Virus record (IMG/VR): IMGVR_UViG_3300028888_000047
Coordinates: 253,465-317,464 of that record
Source: a virus
Taxonomy: Duplodnaviria; Caudoviricetes
Length of the DNA: 64,000 nt
Reading direction: 5' to 3' (one strand)
Shown one piece after another: positions 28,792 to 62,722 of the stretch. Both the position numbers and the translations under genes were made by a program. The number at the start of each line of letters is the position of its first letter. Positions within the stretch are counted from its first letter, which is position 1. The notes beneath the pieces are model-generated. The model was not told the DNA's origin and searched no databases. It worked only from the letters and a program-made list of their open reading frames with translations.

Positions 28792-28825
28792 AACTAAATA
28801 AAAATTAATTGTTAAACATATATTT

Positions 28826-29074
28826 TTAAAAAACTCTATTCTGTGCTGCTTTTATAAAATATCTAAGCGCTTTTTCTGACGTGTCCATGTATTTAAACAC
28901 CTTTGTGTTATAATATGTTTCTTCACCGTCATTAAATGTTTTATAATATACCAATTTATATGCAGTTTTACCATCAAAATCGTTTATAAATTCGCCATGA
29001 AATGAATAATTTGGATTTCTAAACTGTAATAATGATATTGTTTCTTGATATTTTCTTATCAATTCCTCATTCAT
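28826..29074 (-). CDS. Hypothetical protein
   Basis: 82 aa ORF with ATG start, directly behind an early promoter. Confidence 0.6.
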   Translation of the reverse strand: MNEELIRKYQETISLLQFRNPNYSFHGEFINDFDGKTAYKLVYYKTFNDGEETYYNTKVFKYMDTSEKALRYFIKAAQNRVF

Positions 29075-29111
29075 AACAAATATTTTTTAAATTTAACATC
29101 TATTAACACTA

Positions 29112-29143
29112 CAAATATACAAAACATTTTTTTAAAAAACAAA
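29112..29143 (-). promoter_or_regulatory. Bacteroidota sigma-A-type promoter (TTTG-N20-TATATTTG)
   Basis: Both the -33 and -7 elements are present. Confidence 0.8.
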
Positions 29144-29145
29144 TT

Positions 29146-31207: not shown

Positions 31208-31222
31208 AAAATTGCATTTTTA

Positions 31223-31254
31223 CAAATATACAAAAAAATGTTAAAAAAAACAAA
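31223..31254 (-). promoter_or_regulatory. Bacteroidota sigma-A-type promoter (TTTG-N20-TATATTTG)
   Basis: Both elements are present; drives the SLOG / capsid-fragment / rnh unit. Confidence 0.8.
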
Positions 31255-31310
31255 AAAAAGAGGCAAGAAAAAATCTAACCTCTTATTAAAAAATATTTGT
31301 AAAAAATAAA

Positions 31311-32474
31311 TTACCTTACCATTATTCCACTATAAGGCATGGCCTTCATTTTGAGAACGTTCATAAGACTTTCGTTCATATCAGCCTGATTCTTCATTTG
31401 ATTCCAAGGCAACATTCGGTCTAATCGTTCTTTTAACTCGCCCAACACAGCTTCCTTTTCCTGTTTTCCTTGGTCTAACAACATTGAATAATCAAGTTGC
31501 ATTTCAGCTTCAGGTATCTTAACCACTCCGCTTGCATAACCTCTAATATTGCCAAGCAATATCTTCGCCTCAGCTATTAATAAACGTCTTACAATCTGCT
31601 GCGTTGGATAATTAAGCAATTCATAATGCATCTTGCTCAAAGGAACTTGGTCAGGCGTGATTAACAATGTGTCCTTGTTGTCAAGCATACATTGCTCAGT
31701 TGCATCGTTTTCACCGGTGGAAACATCGTAGTAGGTATACCAACAAATACAGTTAATGTATCTACCCCATCCATAAGCATCGTCTGCTGACAATCCTCCA
31801 AGCATATTTTTAGAACCAGGAGTAGACATAAGGTGTACAAGGTGTGTTCCATTTGGCCCAGCTGTTACCTTATAAGCCAAATCGCCTCTTAGAAGTGAGT
31901 TTTTATATTTAAGGTCAGCAGCAAGTAATGCTGTATCATAAGCAGAGCCAACATAGAATCCAATTAAACCCATACCATTCTGATATGTTCCATACTGTCC
32001 CCAACCACCTCCAATACCTGTATCAAGCATTCCTACGTTTCCATATAATGCTGCTTTTGTGGTTGAAGGGGTAATATACATTACTCTGTTTATTTCTCTA
32101 CCTGCAGGAATTACGTACACTTGTTTTCCTTTTTCAATGGTAAAAAAGTCTTTTTTAAGCTCCCACCTTGTTCCGCGTTGCTGAAGACCAACTTCTTTAG
32201 AAAACCACTCTGACCAATCACGTGACCAATCAAGTGTCCTTGTGCTTAACGCAAATGCAAGGTCTGCCGGGTTGTCTATTAATTGGTTTTTACCCATCAT
32301 ATTAAGCCATTGGGATTCGATTACCCAATTTTGCACATATGAAGCATAATCGCCAACACACATTTCAAGAAGGTCGCATAGTTGTTCATCTTCTAACTGA
32401 ACCGGACGAATTGGCGCTCCGCAGCTTGTACGAACTTTCCTAAACAAGTCTTTTATTTCATCTGTTACTATCAT
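31311..32474 (-). CDS. Neck/head-tail connector protein (T4 gp13-like)
   Basis: GAPIRPVQLEDEQL at the N-terminus, and AEAKILLGNIRG...IPEAEMQLDYSMLLDQGKQEKEAV at the C-terminus. Confidence 0.8.
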   Translation of the reverse strand: MIVTDEIKDLFRKVRTSCGAPIRPVQLEDEQLCDLLEMCVGDYASYVQNWVIESQWLNMMGKNQLIDNPADLAFALSTRTLDWSRDWSEWFSKEVGLQQRGTRWELKKDFFTIEKGKQVYVIPAGREINRVMYITPSTTKAALYGNVGMLDTGIGGGWGQYGTYQNGMGLIGFYVGSAYDTALLAADLKYKNSLLRGDLAYKVTAGPNGTHLVHLMSTPGSKNMLGGLSADDAYGWGRYINCICWYTYYDVSTGENDATEQCMLDNKDTLLITPDQVPLSKMHYELLNYPTQQIVRRLLIAEAKILLGNIRGYASGVVKIPEAEMQLDYSMLLDQGKQEKEAVLGELKERLDRMLPWNQMKNQADMNESLMNVLKMKAMPYSGIMVR

Positions 32475-32495: not shown

Positions 32496-32509
32496 TATAA
32501 ATATTTATA
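32496..32509. promoter_or_regulatory. Palindromic, bidirectional putative late promoter TATAAATATTTATA
   Basis: Perfect 14-bp palindrome in the 51-bp gap between divergent genes; gives ATATTTATA on both strands. Confidence 0.6.
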
Positions 32510-32525
32510 TAAAAATTAAAATTGC

Positions 32526-33344
32526 ATGAAAGGTATAATATTAAATGAATCTATTATAAAAAAGGCTTTACGTGAGTCCATTAATGAAATGATGGATGAG
32601 GATAGGATTGAAAATCAGGATGGGACTGTTGAGGTTGATAATTTTGAAGCATTAAAAGAGATAATAAAGTTTGAAAATCCAGGAGATACATTATATTTTA
32701 TACAGATAAAGAAAAGAGATAAGGATAATCCCGGACAACATTCAAAATTCCAAGCAGCAATGCACTTGAAGGAATATTATATTAAATCTCTTCAGGAATT
32801 TGATGCAGCAGAACCAGAAATAAAGGACATTTGCAAGCGTGAAAGTGCTCGCGCTTATATATGGCTTAATGCAAGGTCTAAAGCCATTGTGGATAGGTAC
32901 ACTCAACGAAATATGGATTATTGGAAACGTCATCCTCGTGAAGGCTACAAATACGGCTGGAAGGCTCAAGCTCTTGCTGCTGCCAAAAGTCTTGATATAG
33001 ATGATAGACCTTTATGTTTTGTTGACGTAGATTCTGATGACCAAAATGATATAAATATGGCCATGCAAATCATACAAAGAGCAGGAATTAAGCCGTTATA
33101 TGCTTATAGAAGTTTAAATAATGGAATTCATATAATATTACCAAATAAAGAAGATGCAAAGAAACTTGATTTTTCGCCCATTAACGGTAACTTACAAGGT
33201 ATGGGAAGAAAGGTTCAAATGAACGCAAAGGTTGGTATCGAAATTGATAAACCCGCTTTGCTTTATGCGTGCCTTGTTCCACAGGGATATGGAAAACAAC
33301 AAGCAAGATTCGCAAAATTCACAGGACAAAATAAAAAACCATAA
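32526..33344 (+). CDS. AEP (archaeo-eukaryotic primase/PrimPol)-like protein with a putative capsid-targeting leader
   Basis: hhhDxD (LCFVDVD) and S-x-x-x-G-x-H-hh (SLNNGIHII) resemble AEP motifs I and II; leader ILNES...LRESINE. Confidence 0.55.
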   Translation: MKGIILNESIIKKALRESINEMMDEDRIENQDGTVEVDNFEALKEIIKFENPGDTLYFIQIKKRDKDNPGQHSKFQAAMHLKEYYIKSLQEFDAAEPEIKDICKRESARAYIWLNARSKAIVDRYTQRNMDYWKRHPREGYKYGWKAQALAAAKSLDIDDRPLCFVDVDSDDQNDINMAMQIIQRAGIKPLYAYRSLNNGIHIILPNKEDAKKLDFSPINGNLQGMGRKVQMNAKVGIEIDKPALLYACLVPQGYGKQQARFAKFTGQNKKP

Positions 33345-33347
33345 GTT

Positions 33348-34055
33348 ATGAAAAAGATAATATTAAACGAGAATTCTTTTAAGCTTTTCAAGAAGTTTTT
33401 GGTTAATGAAATAGTATTACCTAAAGGCGTTTCTTTTTGTACCAACCCAAAGGATGAAATATTTTATAAAACTTGTTTAAAAAAATTAGATAACATACCT
33501 AATTTAAGAACAGATAAATATAAGGACTACGACCTTGAAAATGCTTATAATGAGTGGGCTAAAACAGGTTTTTCAAAAGATTCTTTTGAATATAGAACAT
33601 GGTGTGGCTTATTAAAAAACTACATGGATTACCTAAGCACAAGTATCAATTTTGTTAAATTCAATAAGGTTGATAGAATTGGTGATGCAAGAGCACATTA
33701 TGTTTTTGTTGACCCAAAATGGGTGGAAAAAATGAATGATGGAAAAGAAGACTATCAAGGCATATTTTCTTTAACATTAAAAATATATCAAAACAAGGTA
33801 ATATGGAATGATTTATTTTTTAATCCAATATTTGAAACTTTAAAAAACGAAATTAAAGAGATAAGAAAATTTGCAACGATAAAAAGAAAATTGGATAAAA
33901 AATACGATTTACTATTGCCTTTGGAAGAATATATCGAAATAGGTAAATTCATGTCAGACGAAAATAACGCAAAACCTGAACTGTTTTATGATAATAACAC
34001 TAATTATTCCCAGGATTTAACCGTAAATAACGATGAATTTAACTGGGGCGGATAA
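33348..34055 (+). CDS. Hypothetical, putative internal head protein
   Basis: Leader MKKIILNEN...LVNE; C-terminus DEFNWGG. Confidence 0.5.
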   Translation: MKKIILNENSFKLFKKFLVNEIVLPKGVSFCTNPKDEIFYKTCLKKLDNIPNLRTDKYKDYDLENAYNEWAKTGFSKDSFEYRTWCGLLKNYMDYLSTSINFVKFNKVDRIGDARAHYVFVDPKWVEKMNDGKEDYQGIFSLTLKIYQNKVIWNDLFFNPIFETLKNEIKEIRKFATIKRKLDKKYDLLLPLEEYIEIGKFMSDENNAKPELFYDNNTNYSQDLTVNNDEFNWGG

Positions 34056-34069
34056 ACAACAATAAATAA

Positions 34070-35629
34070 ATGGCTAAATTATTAAAATTTGGAGTAGGAT
34101 ATATACCAAAGAAGGTTTTTAAAAATAATAAAACTGGTGAAAAAGAAGAAAAAAGCTGCGTAAGTCTTGCCTTATTTTCAGATTTAAGGTCAGGTGCTGC
34201 TGCATTTCCTCAAATACAAAGTTTTATGAGGGATAACGCGACATTGGATAAAAAAGATGGCACTATATTCATTACCATACCTGAAGATAAGTTTGAAATC
34301 TTTGCAAAGGGTAAATTATTGGAAAGAATTTTATCAACATTTGAACAAACCACAGGATATGTTGCTGATTCTAAAGACATTTCAGAATTGGTTCAAAGAT
34401 TTAACATTGCCAAGGACGAGGTTTTAAACTCTAATAAATCAGATTTAGACGCTATTACAAGCCAATATCTTGAAGACCTTATATCAGGAATAGAAAGGGA
34501 CTTTAATGACCCAAGATTCCAACAAATTATGAACTCAATTCATACGTTCTCTTATAGTAGTATGGGCGGCGGAATAAACAATGTTCAAGGTTCATATAAT
34601 GATAGTGACGTGGTGCTTAAAGAAACCAAACTATCGGTTGAAAATGTTATTAGAGTACTTTCACAATGGCATAAAGCAGGAAGACCTGGTATTCCTACAT
34701 ATCTTGCAACAGAAAATCAATGGCATAGATATTTCAACGGTACTGTTAAACAAGATGCGTTGAAGTTATATGTCGTTAGACCTGATAAAGTAAATGGAGT
34801 ATCTACAAATACTGTTACAAGACAATTAGGAATTGACCCAAATTCTGCCACGTCAGGAGGCGCAATAGGTAGAGGTGTTAATTCAATAGCAAGAGGCGGT
34901 GGTATGGATAAATGGCGTGGAACACAAGAAGCATATGCAATGACTTGTTATTACGACATATCTGACGTTGATGGCGTTGACCCAAATCTTTTAACCGGTA
35001 ATACAGCAAATTATTATGACCCAAATACAGTTACAGCAGATACAACAGATGCTGACACAGGCGATATTGTAACTCAAGACGCACAGCAAAACGATATAGT
35101 CAATGATAATCAACCAATGACAGAAGATTTGCTTAGAAAGAAGCTTTTGAAATATGCCGCTGATAATAAAATAGATGGTATACAATTAGCCATTCAAAGA
35201 GACGGCACAATTGGTGGTCTTGTTTTCATGATTAATCACTTAAAAGCTGTATTCCGTAATCGTAATGCAGAAGAAAAGAAAGCTACAGCTGAACAAATAT
35301 TATTCGTTGTTTTGAAACACTATAATATATTTGAAGATGAGATTAATCAGCTTTATAAGAAGTTTATTTCCAAACTTAGAACGCCAAAAGGAAAGGTTAA
35401 TGAGAAATTAATATATGATATTTGGTCATTCGCGTATGATATTATTTCAAAACTTGATTCAATCAATGAAGAACAAGGAGGTTCATTAACATTAATGGAT
35501 GTCATTGGCTATCTTGGATTTACTGTTGATGAATTTAAAAGAATGCCAAAAACAGAGGAAGAAGCTAATATGATGATGAATGGCGTCAGAGAATCTTTTA
35601 TAAAAACATTTAATAAGTTGTTAATTTAG
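34070..35629 (+). CDS. Protein with an ArdC-N-like ssDNA-binding (antirestriction-type) domain
   Basis: LSVENVIRVLSQ...PTYLATENQWHRYFNGTVKQDALKLYVVRP...YYDISDV follows the ArdC-N pattern (S-x-x-N...Q...T-x-x-QW...V-K...P...F/YDIS). Confidence 0.6.
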   Translation: MAKLLKFGVGYIPKKVFKNNKTGEKEEKSCVSLALFSDLRSGAAAFPQIQSFMRDNATLDKKDGTIFITIPEDKFEIFAKGKLLERILSTFEQTTGYVADSKDISELVQRFNIAKDEVLNSNKSDLDAITSQYLEDLISGIERDFNDPRFQQIMNSIHTFSYSSMGGGINNVQGSYNDSDVVLKETKLSVENVIRVLSQWHKAGRPGIPTYLATENQWHRYFNGTVKQDALKLYVVRPDKVNGVSTNTVTRQLGIDPNSATSGGAIGRGVNSIARGGGMDKWRGTQEAYAMTCYYDISDVDGVDPNLLTGNTANYYDPNTVTADTTDADTGDIVTQDAQQNDIVNDNQPMTEDLLRKKLLKYAADNKIDGIQLAIQRDGTIGGLVFMINHLKAVFRNRNAEEKKATAEQILFVVLKHYNIFEDEINQLYKKFISKLRTPKGKVNEKLIYDIWSFAYDIISKLDSINEEQGGSLTLMDVIGYLGFTVDEFKRMPKTEEEANMMMNGVRESFIKTFNKLLI

Positions 35630-35631
35630 GC

Positions 35632-36801
35632 ATGGATAAAAATATATTATTAAAAGCGTTGGAAAAACAAAAATTGACTGAAGAAATCGTAAATAGGGAT
35701 GAAATATATGTTTATCACTGCGCAAAATACGAAACACTTCAATCAATAGGAGAAGTTGGCTTTGAAAGATATTTCACAGCTGGCGGTGTTGGTAATGCTT
35801 ATGGCCCAGGTATATATTCAACATTTGATTTGGATAGCAGCATAGTTAATGCCAAAAGAGCTGAATATGGAAATGTAATTCTAAAATGCAGAATTAAATC
35901 TTTAAGAAATTTCCTTATATACACACCAGATGTTGCAAAACAAATATATGGAAGAAGTGACGTTGATTTTCAATTAAGAAAAATCCTTAATCCCGATGAT
36001 TATAAAAAATTAAAAGCAGAAGGAAGAACGCCCAACACAAGGTTTTGGATGGTTGGTGATAATATTTATAAACTAATTATAAATGACCCTTCACTTGGCA
36101 TTCAATATACATCTTATTGCTGCCATGCTGCTGACTGGTACGGAGGAAAAAATCCTTCATTTGATAATTCAATTGATGGTTTTATATTTAAAGGTCCACA
36201 TGATGGATATGTTTGCATTATCAGAGACTTTAAGATTGTGTATCCCGTTGAAATCAGCTTTAGTGTTAGAAATGGGGAATATTATAGAACCGGTGAGGTT
36301 AAATTTGAACCATTTAAAACACATGAGTTCTTTGAGGACTTTGCCAAAAATGATGTTGACTTGGTAAGACAATTGAAAAAATTAAATATGCTGAACCAAT
36401 TTGACACATATACTTGTCCAAAATGCGGTGGTGATGGGCATACTTGTAATGGTTCTTATTGTGCAGCTTGTTTTGGAACGGGACAGAAACATAAAGTACC
36501 TGAATATTTTTCAAACAACTTTGCAAGAGTTGAAATTGGCGGAAAATATAATTATCTGTATAGAAAGAATTATACGCATGGAGTTATTTCTCCGGTCGGA
36601 TTCGATGAAGCGCCATTAACATTTGATAAAAATAATCAAGCGTTGGTTAAATATAACGGGCAAAACCTAATTATTAAATTAACAGAACCGCCAATAAGAT
36701 TTTCAGTGTATACACCCGAAGGAGAATATCTATGCAATCTAAAACAACTTGATACATACTTTAATGAAATTGAAAGCGATGATGACTTTGATTGGGGTTA
36801 A
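35632..36801 (+). CDS. PARP-like (H-Y clade) ADP-ribosyltransferase with a DnaJ-type Zn finger and a WG-repeat-like segment
   Basis: YVYHC, GNAYGPGIYST and YGNVILKC; CPKCGGDG...CAACFGTG; FSNNFARVEIGGKYNYL; C-terminus DDDFDWG. Confidence 0.65.
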   Translation: MDKNILLKALEKQKLTEEIVNRDEIYVYHCAKYETLQSIGEVGFERYFTAGGVGNAYGPGIYSTFDLDSSIVNAKRAEYGNVILKCRIKSLRNFLIYTPDVAKQIYGRSDVDFQLRKILNPDDYKKLKAEGRTPNTRFWMVGDNIYKLIINDPSLGIQYTSYCCHAADWYGGKNPSFDNSIDGFIFKGPHDGYVCIIRDFKIVYPVEISFSVRNGEYYRTGEVKFEPFKTHEFFEDFAKNDVDLVRQLKKLNMLNQFDTYTCPKCGGDGHTCNGSYCAACFGTGQKHKVPEYFSNNFARVEIGGKYNYLYRKNYTHGVISPVGFDEAPLTFDKNNQALVKYNGQNLIIKLTEPPIRFSVYTPEGEYLCNLKQLDTYFNEIESDDDFDWG

Positions 36802-36807
36802 ATAATA

Positions 36808-36835
36808 AAAGGTAGTGAAACTAATCACTACCTTT
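36808..36835 (+). terminator. Intrinsic terminator of the + strand cassette
   Basis: 11-bp stem AAAGGTAGTGA/TCACTACCTTT followed by ATTTTT. Confidence 0.75.
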
Positions 36836-36861: not shown

Positions 36862-36884
36862 ACCGGCGGATTTTTTCCGCCGGT
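36862..36884 (-). terminator. Stem-loop terminator after uvsX
   Basis: GC-rich 9-bp stem ACCGGCGGA/TCCGCCGGT next to the stop codon; convergent gene junction. Confidence 0.7.
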
Positions 36885-39700: not shown

Positions 39701-39749
39701 ATTATTAAATTATTAAAAATGCATCATAAGATGCTTAAATTCACTATTA

Positions 39750-39779
39750 CAAATATACAAAAATTTTTTAAAAAACAAA
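39750..39779 (-). promoter_or_regulatory. Bacteroidota sigma-A-type promoter (TTTG-N18-TATATTTG) for the ssb-tdk-uvsX unit
   Basis: Both elements are present; an ATATTTATA motif lies just upstream (39792-39800). Confidence 0.8.
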
Positions 39780-39810
39780 AATATTTTCTTATATAAATAT
39801 CAGGAAAAAC

Positions 39811-39843
39811 AAAAAAGAGTAACCACCTTGATTACTCTTTTTA
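39811..39843 (-). terminator. Intrinsic terminator
   Basis: AAAAAAGAGTAA/TTACTCTTTTTT inverted repeat with T-tracts on both strands. Confidence 0.7.
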
Positions 39844-39851
39844 TATCTTTT

Positions 39852-41389: not shown

Positions 41390-41983
41390 TTAAATAATTG
41401 ACATGAAATATGGAATTACATATTTCTTATTTCCAATTTCTGTTTTTATACTTTTCACACAATCTGAAGCATTGGTACAAATTATATTATTTTTGTTTGA
41501 ATATAATTTTTTAAAAATTTTCTTTATATCTACTTTTATGTATTCCAAAATTGATATTGAAATTCCCAAAATTGCATCATTGTACAAAATATAAAACATA
41601 TTGTTACTTATATAAATATATTTTCTTTCTCCGGAAAATAATATATTATATAATTTTTTTATTTTACTATATTTTAAATTTAATATATTAATATAATAAT
41701 ATTTTATATTACTAGATATATTATTTATTATATAATTATAAAAATAGTTTATATCATTCTCAAAGTCAACCCTTTTTTCAGTTTTTTTAAATGTCCAAAA
41801 TAAGTTATCATTGACTTTTTTATCCAAAATTGAGAAATTTTCAATATATTTCTTGGCCAAATCTATGCCAACTATTAAAACAGGTTTCGTTGGGTCTGCC
41901 AATGAAATATCATCAACAACACCAACGAAATCCTTAACATCTTTTATCTTTCTATCCGTAACAATATAGCCTAATTTTTGCAT
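41390..41983 (-). CDS. Hypothetical protein
   Basis: Start set at MQKLGY (ATG 41983), downstream of the promoter at 42003. Confidence 0.6.
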   Translation of the reverse strand: MQKLGYIVTDRKIKDVKDFVGVVDDISLADPTKPVLIVGIDLAKKYIENFSILDKKVNDNLFWTFKKTEKRVDFENDINYFYNYIINNISSNIKYYYINILNLKYSKIKKLYNILFSGERKYIYISNNMFYILYNDAILGISISILEYIKVDIKKIFKKLYSNKNNIICTNASDCVKSIKTEIGNKKYVIPYFMSII

Positions 41984-42002
41984 ATTACAATAAATTTTTA
42001 AA

Positions 42003-42014
42003 CAAATATACAAA
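42003..42014 (-). promoter_or_regulatory. Bacteroidota sigma-A-type promoter, -7 element
   Basis: TTTGTATATTTG, 20 nt upstream of ATG 41983. Confidence 0.72.
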
Positions 42015-42035
42015 AATATTTTTAAAAAAAGAAAT

Positions 42036-45000
42036 TTAACTCCTTAAACATTTACCATTGTAACAAGTTGATGGCTTTTGATTGGTTGATTTTCCATTTC
42101 CATTATATTTTATTATCCAGAAAGTACCCGGACCACTGTTACCATAGACATAAGGTTTATTTTGTTTAAAATCACTATACCAACCATTTCCGTCTCCGCA
42201 ATACATGCAAACGTGTCCAACATAATTGAAATCACTTCCTTTAGTCATACCCATAACATCACCAACTTCAGGTTTGTAGTTTTTAAATTCATTTGAATCT
42301 GTCTTACCTGTTAATTCAAATCTCCATCCTCCTTCATTAACCATGTTAAGAGCCTTTCTATAGCCATTTCCTGAAGGACATTCTATACCGCCAGCAAGCA
42401 CTGCTTGTTGAACAGCAAAAGCACATATATGCTTAGATTCACTTAAACCATGTTGTATCAAGAAATTAGCAGCCTTTCCTGCGTCCCAATTTCCAATTTT
42501 CATGTTTTCTTGTAAAACTCCACCAACTCCATTAATGTTATCTTCCATTCCAAGTTCTTTCATAATGCTACTACAATCTTCAATCTTATATTTTTCAAAC
42601 AACGCTTCATAATTATCCAATTGATTGTTTGTATCACCTTTTAACTGTTGACTTGGAGAACCATATGCCTTTACCAATGCATAACAGAAATCTTCATGTA
42701 TTCCATCATTATTATTTTCTCCCTTCGGTATAACAACTTTTCCAATCATTTGACTTGGATTATTTTCAGATGTCACTTTGATATTCTTATAAGTGCTACC
42801 TTCTTTAACATGAACCAAAAAAGCAACAGGTAATACGTGTTGTGATGAACCATCTCCTGGTAATATCCAATTAATTGTATCAACTTTATCAGAATATGCT
42901 GATAAAATCATATCCAATACAGAGCCAAATTTGCTACTGTTATTGCCATTTGTTAGCCATATTGTATCACCATCACTCTTTTCTGTTTTTATACCAATGT
43001 TAACTTTATTTGATGAAGAGGATGAAGTTTTATTTAAAGAATTTAAAAATGCAGTAGCCAAATCAGAAACTTTACCTTTTGCATTTCTTGCAACAGGTGC
43101 AGTTGATGAAGTATTACTGTTATATGCATTAAAATAAGCTTTTGCTTTCTCTATTCTCAAGTCATTTTCAGCTAAACCTTGCATGCATTTTTTACACCTT
43201 TCATACACAGCAGCAAATATCTTTGCAGCCTCTACTGCGCTACTTGCATTATTAAGTAAATCTTTTAAATTCTTACCTGGAAATTGCTTCCAATATTCAT
43301 AATTTAGCTTTTTATTATAGTTTGGTATTTTTGCATATGATTTAATTATGCTATTATGCAGAAATTCTAATTGTTTGTCTGCGCTTGGTAAATCTGATGA
43401 TGTAATTGAACGCGAGCATGATGGGTCTGTAGCTGTACCATATGGGTTTCCATTAACCAAATCACATAGATTTGTAGCGTTCCACATACACAATCCGCCT
43501 GATTTATATCCATTACTATCAACAATTAAGTTATTGGCTTTAAAAAGAGATTCTTCCCACATATTACCGACTATTCCGGCTGCTGCTGATGTAGAATAGC
43601 CAAATGAAATTAACTTGCTCATTAAAGATTTGGCACTATCCTTTTCTGAACCACTTAATTTAACATTACCATCATCAATTACCAACGGATATACCTTATA
43701 TGGACAGTTATTAGCAACTCCTGCTGTTAATTCTTTAACTGATACACTATCAGAATTTCCATTTTCTTCACCATTTCCTGTTTGATTATTTCTTTCTCTT
43801 ATAGAATCCTCACGTGCAATTCTCGTGCAAACATTTGACATTCTAACGCCAACAAATTTTGTAACCATATTACCAGGTTCTATATGGTGAGACACCTTTT
43901 CTATCAAATAAGTGCCTCTAAACATTGGAACATTGTTTAACACAAAGTACATAAGAGGCTGTACCCATGCACAACCCATCATTGTTACCGTACATGTGTA
44001 TGAGTTATTTGAATAAATTGAAAATAAATCTTGGCCATAAGTATAAATTTTAGACCTATCGCCGGTTTGTTCTCCGGTGTTGTTTTGACAAGCAATAGCA
44101 AATTGAGCCTTAATTGATTGCTCAGTTACAATTGGGCTATCCATCGACACATCAACATCTTTAAAATAACTTTGATACATTTTTCCATAAGAAACCCCAA
44201 AAGCTGGAATATTATATCTTGTTGATGAATTTGCGTTTCTTGATGTCAACGCCTCTGGCCATTTGTTCGTTGTACTTGGCGGTTGATTTATCATAAAGCC
44301 ATCATTTTCATATTCACTGTTTTCGATGTCAAGATAATTTGATGACTCATATGGATACATAACAATGAAATTTGGATGGTCTTTTATATATCTTATTTCA
44401 TTGAATGATATTGTATCAAACATTTTTTCAAGATTTTTCTTATCTCCCAAATCTATAAAGTTTTGCACACATAAGAAATTAAGTTTATTTTGTTGATATA
44501 ATCCTGATAAAAATGATAATAATGAGAATTGTTCATTTCTGTAGCAACTAACAACTCTATCGCAAAAATCTCCTATGTTAATTTTAATGAATTCGGCTTT
44601 GTTGTAATAAGCGTCTATGAAATAAAAATACTTATCTTCTCTATTATCATCAAAAAATGCTTCTATTGTCAAAGATTTATTAAATTCTTCTTCACTTATA
44701 CCAGCAATCCATTTATCATAAATCATCTTGCAATATCTATATATACCAATTTTTATATCATCATTGGAATCGTCTGGTTCTTTTGCTTGTGATATTTGTG
44801 TGCTTACTCCATCACTGTCAACTTTAATATTTTGTATTACTGATAAGAATCCATTAAAGAATTGAATTAATTCACCAGTATCTGCTTTAGGAACAATATC
44901 ATTTGTTTCATTAAAGTATTTACTATTTTTAGAAAAAATACACCCAGCTAAAGCGAAATTACAAGCGTGTATTGCACTTGGTCCTCCGTCTCTAATTCCG

Positions 45001-62427: not shown

Positions 62428-62469
62428 GTATATATTTTTTATAAAAAATAAACATTATTGCAAAAAAAT

Positions 62470-62499
62470 AAAGGAATAGATGAAAATCTCTATTCCTTT
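62470..62499 (-). terminator. Intrinsic terminator
   Basis: 11-bp stem AAAGGAATAGA/TCTATTCCTTT followed by a T-tract on the minus strand. Confidence 0.6.
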
Positions 62500-62624
62500 T
62501 TCAATGTATATTGATATACTCCGCATCCACAATCATATATCCTATATATTTCTCTTTCTAACATTATCTCATGCTCTGTTTTATCCTTATCATAGCCTCC
62601 CTTAACCAAAACATCTTTTCTAAA
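62490..62624 (-). pseudogene. C-terminal remnant of a Hef-like homing endonuclease
   Basis: FRKDVLVKGGYDKDKTEHEIMLEREIYRIYDCG matches the C-terminus of Hef-like phage endonucleases; no in-frame ATG between the promoter (62641-62652) and this segment. Confidence 0.68.
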
Positions 62625-62640
62625 AATAATTTTAATAATA

Positions 62641-62652
62641 CAAATATACAAA
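62641..62652 (-). promoter_or_regulatory. Bacteroidota sigma-A-type promoter, -7 element
   Basis: TTTGTATATTTG upstream of the endonuclease remnant. Confidence 0.65.
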
Positions 62653-62722
62653 GAATTAATTAAAAAAATAAAAAAACATATATTTATTAAAAAATAATTA
62701 ATTATTAAAAAATAATAAAGAC

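Follow-up and report, generated by a model that had tools for sequence, protein, structure and literature searches.

The stretch of DNA analysed here (the window) is the last 64 kb of IMGVR_UViG_3300028888_000047, a linear virus contig of 317,464 bp that is estimated to be 95% complete. The analysis suggests that its source is a T4-like jumbo phage with a Bacteroidota-type host. Within the window lies a cassette of four open reading frames (ORFs), c1 to c4, all on the + strand and inverted within the - strand genes on both flanks (Table 1; coordinates follow the window numbering unless marked 'genome' or given with an L-number, which denotes a related phage). Both the GC and the AT skew reverse sign across 32–36 kb, i.e., over the cassette. 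The intergenic gaps c1/c2, c2/c3 and c3/c4 are 3, 14 and 2 nt, respectively, the 51-nt spacer upstream of c1 contains a perfect 14-nt palindrome, TATAAATATTTATA, and a hairpin followed by a T-run closes the operon. An earlier reading made from the letters alone (the sequence-only reading) had described a self-contained + strand operon with a palindromic promoter and a terminator; the ORFs, palindrome and hairpin are all located as it claimed, and every string that it quoted is present, both the leaders of c1, c2 and c4 and, within c3, INEE and VRES. A Pfam scan of c1–c4 gave nothing that reaches threshold, a PHROG scan returned only phrog_14949 (for c1), and no matches were found when the cassette was searched against a phage collection at the DNA and protein levels, or when single cassette proteins were searched against PDB sequences.

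By profile comparison, the first 25 residues of c1 are a real and statistically robust member of a family of tags spread across the genome. Attention had been drawn to these leaders by their [IL]xE sites, but this motif occurs within the first 25 residues of 141 of the 445 ORFs of the genome (32%), and alone is worthless as evidence. A search seeded with the c1 and c2 leaders revealed a module of about 25 residues with the rough consensus K-Q-I-I-R-L-T-E-S-D-L-H-R-I-V-K-E-S-V-x-R-I-L-K-E ('LTESDL...ESVxxILxE'). About 15 ORFs dispersed over the genome, otherwise unrelated, carry it at their N-termini. Internal copies occur in two proteins, at residue 227 of ORF 41620-42585 and at residue 133 of ORF 249926-250906 (genome coordinates). 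The c1 tag is recognized by a hidden Markov model (HMM) built without c1, with an independent E-value (iE) of 1.6e-4 among the 2,890 ORFs, and c1 homologues of other phages match the tag HMM down to an iE of 4.6e-7. The leader of c2 is a weaker variant; one c2 homologue matches the tag HMM (iE 0.0014), and an HMM of the c2 leader, built without c2, matches an unrelated ORF of 128 aa (genome 198512-198898, iE 1.7e-5).

Strong copies of the tag end in phi-phi-x-E, an ending that was required by the choice of seeds. Tag copies are 46% identical in protein, and at identical residues the codon is also identical in only 48% of cases, which indicates that selection acts on the tag peptide and rules out recent DNA duplication as the source of the copies. 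None of ten tagged proteins gave a Pfam match above the curated cut-off, and a text search of the literature for the tag motif found no description of the family.

The palindrome upstream of c1 offers the motif ATATTTAT to both of the genes that diverge from it, c1 and the gene of a probable T4 gp13-like neck (head-completion) protein. The latter was assigned by an ESM Atlas feature search (score 0.99), in which 30 of 30 matches were Phage_T4_gp13 clusters; no Pfam, PHROG or PDB sequence match was found for it, and it shares 80% identity with its counterpart in the relative L002. Genome-wide, ATATTTAT or TATTTATA is placed 22–30 nt upstream of the start codon in 23 genes, with no conserved upstream element, and these sites (class B) probably represent a phage-specific, late promoter class. 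Besides the gp13-like gene, the class includes the gene for a 1492-aa fibre with a Peptidase_S74 tail-fibre chaperone domain, a gene for a BACON-domain protein and seven or eight tagged genes, and the motif is also found at the head of the tail-lysin operon. Tagged genes are enriched for class B (7/15 versus 16/430, Fisher p = 1.9e-6), and the motif is retained 5' of the cassette in L001, L002 and L004. Since class B precedes virion genes at this spacing (the tail fibre and the probable neck gene), late expression of the cassette is plausible, and the description of the palindromic promoter as late-type can be kept in the sense that its class is common to virion genes, from which we infer the timing itself.

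A second class of promoter (class A), TTTG...TAnnTTTG, often written TTTTGTATATTTG, lies 5' of replication genes, and the FEN, gp32 and SLOG-family genes have TAnnTTTG promoters. The most enriched upstream k-mers of the whole genome also spell TTTG and TAnnTTTG, the housekeeping promoter type of Bacteroidota, and this points to a host in that group. A sigma-70-type promoter (TTGACA-18-AATATT) upstream of c1 was considered and rejected, as such matches are no commoner here than in shuffled sequence.

The protein encoded by c1 is predicted to be an AEP-like nucleotidyltransferase. Its homologues (50–88% identity) are found on contigs of up to 410 kb, and an alignment of 24 of them shows three invariant blocks: C-F-x-D-x-D (D167, D169), N-N-G-x-H (H202) and I-D-K (D241). 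Their order fits motifs I (hhhDxD), II (sxH) and III (hD) of AEP/PrimPol enzymes. Support from HMMs is sub-threshold: PF01896 (primase small subunit) matches six of the 24 homologues at 16–18 bits (cut-off 26.8), always over profile positions 1–65, which cover motifs I and II, while c1 itself has no match to PF01896 or PF24387. The Atlas feature search placed c1 in an 'AEP-like' cluster at 0.93. 

Alignment of the c2 family shows that the leader is conserved, with E8 and E21 invariant; no Pfam or PHROG match and no recognisable fold were found for c2. Both c2 and c4, and their homologues, carry acidic C-terminal runs that end in an aromatic residue (DDDFDWG, NDEFNWGG, DDDEDF, DEDEDY and DEEDEW), and one extra cassette protein of L004 (152 aa) has a similar tail, FWDDEDWD. 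Tails of this type resemble those of single-stranded DNA-binding proteins (SSB) and T7 gp2.5, as well as clamp-binding peptides, and they favour docking to a common partner.

The product of c4 is well supported by structural modelling as a PARP-like ADP-ribosyltransferase (ART) fold with His and Tyr motifs, and ART activity is predicted. It consists of the ART domain (residues ~20–224), a CxxC zinc ribbon (257–284) that is missing from 6 of 17 homologues, a beta-rich domain resembling WG repeats (287–365), and the acidic tail DDDFDWG. The AlphaFold2 (AF2) model has a pLDDT of 82 and a pTM of 0.75. Foldseek matched it to PARP14, PARP15, tankyrase, PARP10, the ADP-ribosylating anti-CRISPR AcrIF11 (6kyf) and MbcT, with E-values of ~0.01 and probabilities of up to 0.97. 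The VIA search is independent of Foldseek, and almost all of its top 30 matches were ART folds (Z 5.0–6.4, over residues 20–224). A profile of the c4 family (18 homologues) matches PARP10, 14 and 15 over the His and Tyr motifs (E 0.0016–0.003), aligning YVYH with the strand of the catalytic His, and GFERYF..YGPGIY with GFNRSF..YGKGVYF. Invariant residues in the alignment of 17 homologues include H29, Y57, G58, G60, Y62, D191 and G192. At the position of the classic Glu, E207 is replaced by Ala in two of these 17, and D191, at the start of the penultimate strand, is a candidate for the third catalytic residue; PARP10, 14 and 15 lack the catalytic Glu. Against PF00644 the protein scores 12.9 bits (E 0.077), below the gathering cut-off of 26.7, and other Pfam matches (WG_beta_rep, DnaJ_CXXCXGXG) are weak. 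The ART assignment made from sequence motifs is therefore well founded, but its likeness to T4 Alt is not: c4 is of the H-Y type rather than R-S-E, and no tblastn match to it was found in the phage collection. The leader of c4 contains L-x-E-E, with E17 invariant in the c4 family.

The c3 protein is built of three parts, an alpha/beta N-domain (residues 1–120), a conserved core (182–309) and a helical C-domain, and has an acidic disordered linker (310–347). The AF2 model is of moderate quality (pLDDT 69 overall, 65–83 over the core region). When the core was used in a VIA fold search of 48,161 chains, the best match was R388 ArdC (6sna_A), with a middling Z of 6.4 and a root mean square deviation of 3.0 over 79 residues, aligned to residues 45–135 of the ArdC chain; this is also where an ArdC-N domain had been proposed from motifs. 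All sequence tests of that proposal failed. The ArdC-N Pfam HMM (PF08401) matched none of the 18 c3 homologues, and a six-frame search of the genome gave nothing at E-values of up to 10. A profile of the c3 family against PDB sequences gave no ArdC-N match, and hhalign of c3 against an alignment of nine plasmid ArdC-N domains gave a Prob of 0.1, for a short segment that lies in the ArdC-N region also aligned by VIA. R388 ArdC was not among the top Foldseek matches of the c3 model, and Foldseek against PDB and BFVD returned only weak, LAGLIDADG-like matches to the N-domain. No HExxH motif was found in c3, and its helical C-domain has no peptidase match. The label 'ArdC-N-like' for the core, a candidate ssDNA-binding domain, is thus a fold-level lead only.

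In the related phages L002 and L003 the cassette is found at the same place, with the gene order c1-c3-c4-c2 and one extra gene; in L002 this is a 544-aa gene 3' of c2 (L002:11775-13409, + strand). The flanking genes share 78–85% identity with those of L002/L003, and the cassette proteins only 58, 28, 37 and 31%, showing that the cassette evolves much faster than its surroundings. Judging from gene order, c3 and c4 are a conserved gene pair, as they are adjacent in L001, L002 and the distant phage L004. Cassette content and order vary among the relatives, in which the four families are also encoded by separate ORFs; here too there are four ORFs with stop codons between them, and not one polyvalent protein.

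Head-module genes were found in four relatives (186–401 kb) that carry homologues of c1 or of c3–c4. All four encode a gp21-type protease (E 1e-23 to 1e-28), and in all four this gene adjoins one for a gp23-type capsid protein (E 1e-59 to 1e-65). In the 186-kb relative L053 the order of genes is portal, a 307-aa gene, a tagged 64-aa ORF, three small ORFs, protease, a 189-aa ORF, a scaffold-like acidic protein and capsid. Two ...KILKEDFG[FY] units make up most of the tagged ORF, which is a candidate for a small protein of the prohead core, and the 189-aa ORF after the protease has a c2-like leader, with an iE of 0.6 only. In T4 the small core proteins gp67 and gp68 are encoded between the portal and protease genes, and the tag copy in the corresponding interval of L053 lends circumstantial support to a role of the tag in the head core.

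The reading that we favour, tentatively and at something less than an even chance, is that the cassette is a late accessory operon, and that c1 and c2 are loaded into the head by means of their tags and delivered with the DNA. In this scheme the single-element phage promoter ATATTTAT within the palindrome would fire both ways, into the gp13-like neck gene and into c1 to c4, and so drive late transcription of a fast-evolving accessory operon. The tag would work like the capsid-targeting sequence of T4, docking late-made proteins to the prohead core, and the gp21-type protease of the clade may then cut it off after Glu. The c1 protein, and probably c2, would thus be carried inside the head and reach the next host cell along with the DNA. 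Given a gp21-type protease in the relatives and a contig without a head module, we infer that packaging would be a reasonable idea in the case of c1 and c2, but a weaker one for the other two proteins; capsid delivery of the first two has the same tentative standing as the reading itself, and that of c3 and c4 is less probable. The c3 and c4 proteins, a candidate ssDNA binder and a PARP-like mono-ADP-ribosyltransferase (as predicted from the fold), might be carried into the head bound to tagged partners, or might do their work in the cell in which they are made. The most likely target of c4 would be a host protein or nucleic acid. The scheme that first suggested capsid-packaged effectors is therefore retained in part: its operon, promoter class, c4 assignment, c1 motifs and c1 tag hold, as does a suitable protease in the clade, while its ArdC-N domain is a fold-level lead and neither its c4 leader nor a likeness of c4 to Alt is supported.

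Several observations weigh against head loading. The bare [IL]xE motif is too common in this genome to count as evidence of packaging, the c4 leader has no significant match to the tag HMM, and by the same model c3 has no tag, so that of the proposed [IL]xE-rich leaders only that of c1 and, more weakly, that of c2 are sustained. The cassette is placed amid replication and recombination genes, not head genes. Class B is found 5' of homing endonucleases as well, at the same distance from HNH genes, and upstream of nrdD and gp32 alongside other promoters, so the class may not be strictly late. The acidic-aromatic tails of c2 and c4 fit, by analogy, a role at the replication fork, and keep alive the alternative that these proteins act there. 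No primase of the DnaG/Toprim type was found in the 317-kb contig, and c1 could therefore be the replicative primase. Finally, neither Peptidase_S77 (gp21) nor S78 is encoded on this contig, and a full gp23 and an obvious portal or terminase are absent as well. This last absence was discarded as an argument against packaging, since gp21 sits beside gp23 in all four relatives and the head module probably lies in the ~5% missing at the contig ends. A ClpP-like gene, labelled 'head maturation protease' in PHROGs, was rejected as the head protease of this phage, as it scores as a true ClpP and lies among small orphan genes with no head-module context.

Among the alternatives, the one that survives best keeps the operon late but has its products act in the producing cell, in recombination-dependent replication, the handling of DNA ends or host shut-off. 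Here c1 would serve in priming or extension of DNA and c3 as an ssDNA binder, c2 and c4 would attach to an SSB or clamp hub by their C-terminal tails, and the target of ADP-ribosylation by c4 would be a factor of replication, repair or defence; the tag would be a common helix for assembly or docking, or would mark proteins for regulated proteolysis by the ClpP-like protease of the phage. This accounts for the position of the operon between the genes for UvsX, thymidine kinase, gp32, the DnaB-like helicase and FEN exonuclease, for the resemblance of the c2 and c4 tails to the DDLPF end of the gp32-like protein and to the end of a second, SSB-tailed ORF, for the weakly tagged acidic protein encoded next to the ClpP-like gene, and for the lack of a tag on c3. 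It sits less well with the [IL]-x-E ending of all strong tag copies (again, an ending that the seeds required) in a clade that has a gp21-type protease, with the tag copy inside the head module of a relative, with the co-regulation of the operon and virion genes, and with a divergence that is fast and unusual for core replication factors. We regard it as a serious possibility, if on the whole a doubtful one. If it is true, acidic-aromatic tails would point to phage proteins that join SSB or clamp hubs in the late stage of infection.

It is improbable that c1 is simply the replicative AEP-type primase, working with the DnaB-like helicase, and that c2–c4 are unrelated accessory or anti-defence genes that are on its transcript by chance and have no delivery in common. 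The missing Toprim/DnaG-type primase would be explained in this way, and c1, with at least 134 homologues, is conserved far more broadly and strongly than c2 (15), c3 (18) and c4 (18), in a cassette whose content and order shift from one relative to the next. The c1 protein, however, lacks both a zinc finger and a domain for helicase binding, the shared tag is retained in its family, and its gene has a class B promoter whereas the replication genes on the helicase side use class A; moreover, with a contig that is 95% complete, a primase of the DnaG type may lie outside the assembled part or have diverged too far to be detected.

That the grouping is meaningless, i.e., ordinary N-terminal helices on an arbitrary set of orphans, draws on the commonness of [IL]xE and the failure of every cassette protein to reach a Pfam threshold, and is very hard to credit given a statistically robust tag family tied to one promoter class, a c3–c4 pairing and promoter kept in distant phages, and the conservation of all four families across phages.

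Extended beyond this locus, delivery in the head would make the tag a portable signal for capsid loading, used by a large clade of T4-like Bacteroidota jumbo phages, with a changing cargo of some 15 enzymes and orphan proteins that includes an AEP polymerase, and with the PARP-like ART and the ssDNA binder carried by way of their partners; in effect, a modular 'split polyvalent' ejectosome. As a whole we consider this rather unlikely. If the tag is indeed a head-loading signal, the set of proteins injected by uncultured gut and rumen jumbo phages could be read from their genomes, and there would be a handle for putting foreign proteins into such capsids. The c3–c4 pair is a defined two-gene module whose divergence far outpaces that of the genes around it, as one would expect from a system engaged in conflict with the host.

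The - strand genes around the cassette encode a DnaB-like helicase, a FEN-type exonuclease, a UvsX/RecA-like protein, thymidine kinase, NrdD and an SSB of the gp32 family (PF08804, E 1.7e-15; C-terminus DDLPF), while baseplate and tail genes lie farther away. Also among the replication genes is one for a YspA/SLOG-family protein that resembles the N-terminal region of DprA. Beyond the terminator of the cassette, a second hairpin, G+C-rich and facing the opposite way, is terminator-like on both strands. Elsewhere in the genome, a separate 142-aa ORF (genome 177657-178085, - strand) ends in EPEDDLPF, a tail of the bacterial SSB type.

Table 1. Coordinates of the cassette, its parts and other features discussed in the text (window numbering unless marked 'genome' or L053).
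Feature	Coordinates	Strand	Basis or remark
Palindrome TATAAATATTTATA, candidate bidirectional late promoter	32496-32509	.	17 nt 5' of c1 ATG
c1, predicted AEP-like nucleotidyltransferase, 272 aa	32526-33344	+	ORF; motifs, sub-threshold HMM, Atlas
c1 tag, residues 1-25, 'LTESDL...ESVxxIIxE' family member	32526-32600	+	Leave-out HMM
c2, 235 aa	33348-34055	+	ORF; leader with two [LI]xE sites, acidic-aromatic C-terminal tail
c3, 519 aa	34070-35629	+	ORF; AF2 model, 18 homologues, alignment
c3 conserved core, residues 182-309, candidate ssDNA-binding domain	34613-34996	+	ArdC-N-like fold
c4, predicted PARP-like ART, 389 aa	35632-36801	+	ORF; AF2, Foldseek, VIA, profile, alignment
Intrinsic-terminator-like hairpin and T-run, operon end	36808-36835	+	Sequence
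Second, opposite-facing G+C-rich hairpin	36862-36884	.	Between cassette terminator and end of UvsX-like gene
Divergent neighbour of c1, probably T4 gp13-like neck protein	31311-32474	-	ESM Atlas
YspA/SLOG-family protein (PF10686), 127 aa	30824-31207	-	Among replication genes
Class-A promoter sites	31208-31310, 28792-29145, 39701-39851, 62428-62722		Upstream of replication genes
Tagged ORFs outside the window (examples)	genome 338-1408, 14193-14588, 41229-42588, 110496-111395, 241961-242893, 249923-251565		
HNH homing-endonuclease genes with ATATTTAT	genome 96827-97963, 159893-160657	-	Sequence
ClpP-like protease	genome 232626-233306	-	PF00574, 174 bits
Acidic protein, 146 aa, weak tag, DDDDLDW tail	genome 232092-232532	-	Next after ClpP-like gene
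64-aa ORF, candidate small prohead-core protein	L053:7078-7272	+	Tag copy, iE 1.1e-6

In T4, the capsid-targeting sequence is removed by the gp21 prohead protease, and Alt is injected into the host. The present system is like the internal proteins and Alt of T4 in that unrelated protein bodies, probably late-made, share a short N-terminal sequence ending in [L/I]-x-E (an ending that, for the strong copies here, the seeds required), in that the clade encodes both a protease of the gp21 type (Peptidase_S77) and a capsid protein of the gp23 type, and in that an ART is among the candidate cargo. It differs in the length of the tag, about 25 residues versus about 10, and there is no sequence similarity to the T4 capsid-targeting sequence. 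Moreover, Alt is an ART of the R-S-E type (PMC5512222), while c4 is of the PARP-like H-Y type with no significant tag, the tagged proteins being c1 and, more weakly, c2.

The polyvalent proteins of phages and conjugative elements, for which delivery together with the incoming DNA has been predicted (Iyer et al. 2017, PMC5512222), overlap with the cassette in their repertoire of H-Y-[D/E] ART, AEP/PrimPol and ArdC-N domains, although ArdC-N and primases are tied mainly to conjugative elements and less to phages (PMC5512222). Here, by contrast, there are four polypeptides, with no zincin/MPTase, MuF or portal fusion, and the ArdC-N likeness is at the level of the fold only. Packaged phage ARTs, including PARP-like ones, and the ArdC-N/PrimPol/ART repertoire are published comparative-genomic predictions (PMC5512222, PMC9503650), so that to speak of an undescribed system, as the sequence-only reading did, is too strong; we found no published description of the tag family or of the conserved c3–c4 pair. 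The ArdC protein of R388 (PDB 6sna / 6i89) is the best structural match of the conserved core of c3, which differs from it in having no significant sequence or profile similarity, no zincin (HExxH) domain and other flanking domains. For c4, the counterparts are the phage PART ARTs of the HY-[EDQ] clade (Iyer et al. 2022, PMC9503650), with which it shares the PARP-like fold, the His and Tyr motifs, an origin in a jumbo phage with a contractile tail, and late or virion-gene surroundings such as were interpreted as a sign of head packaging (PMC9503650); it is set apart from them by the added zinc ribbon, the WG-like beta domain, the acidic tail and the tight pairing with c3.

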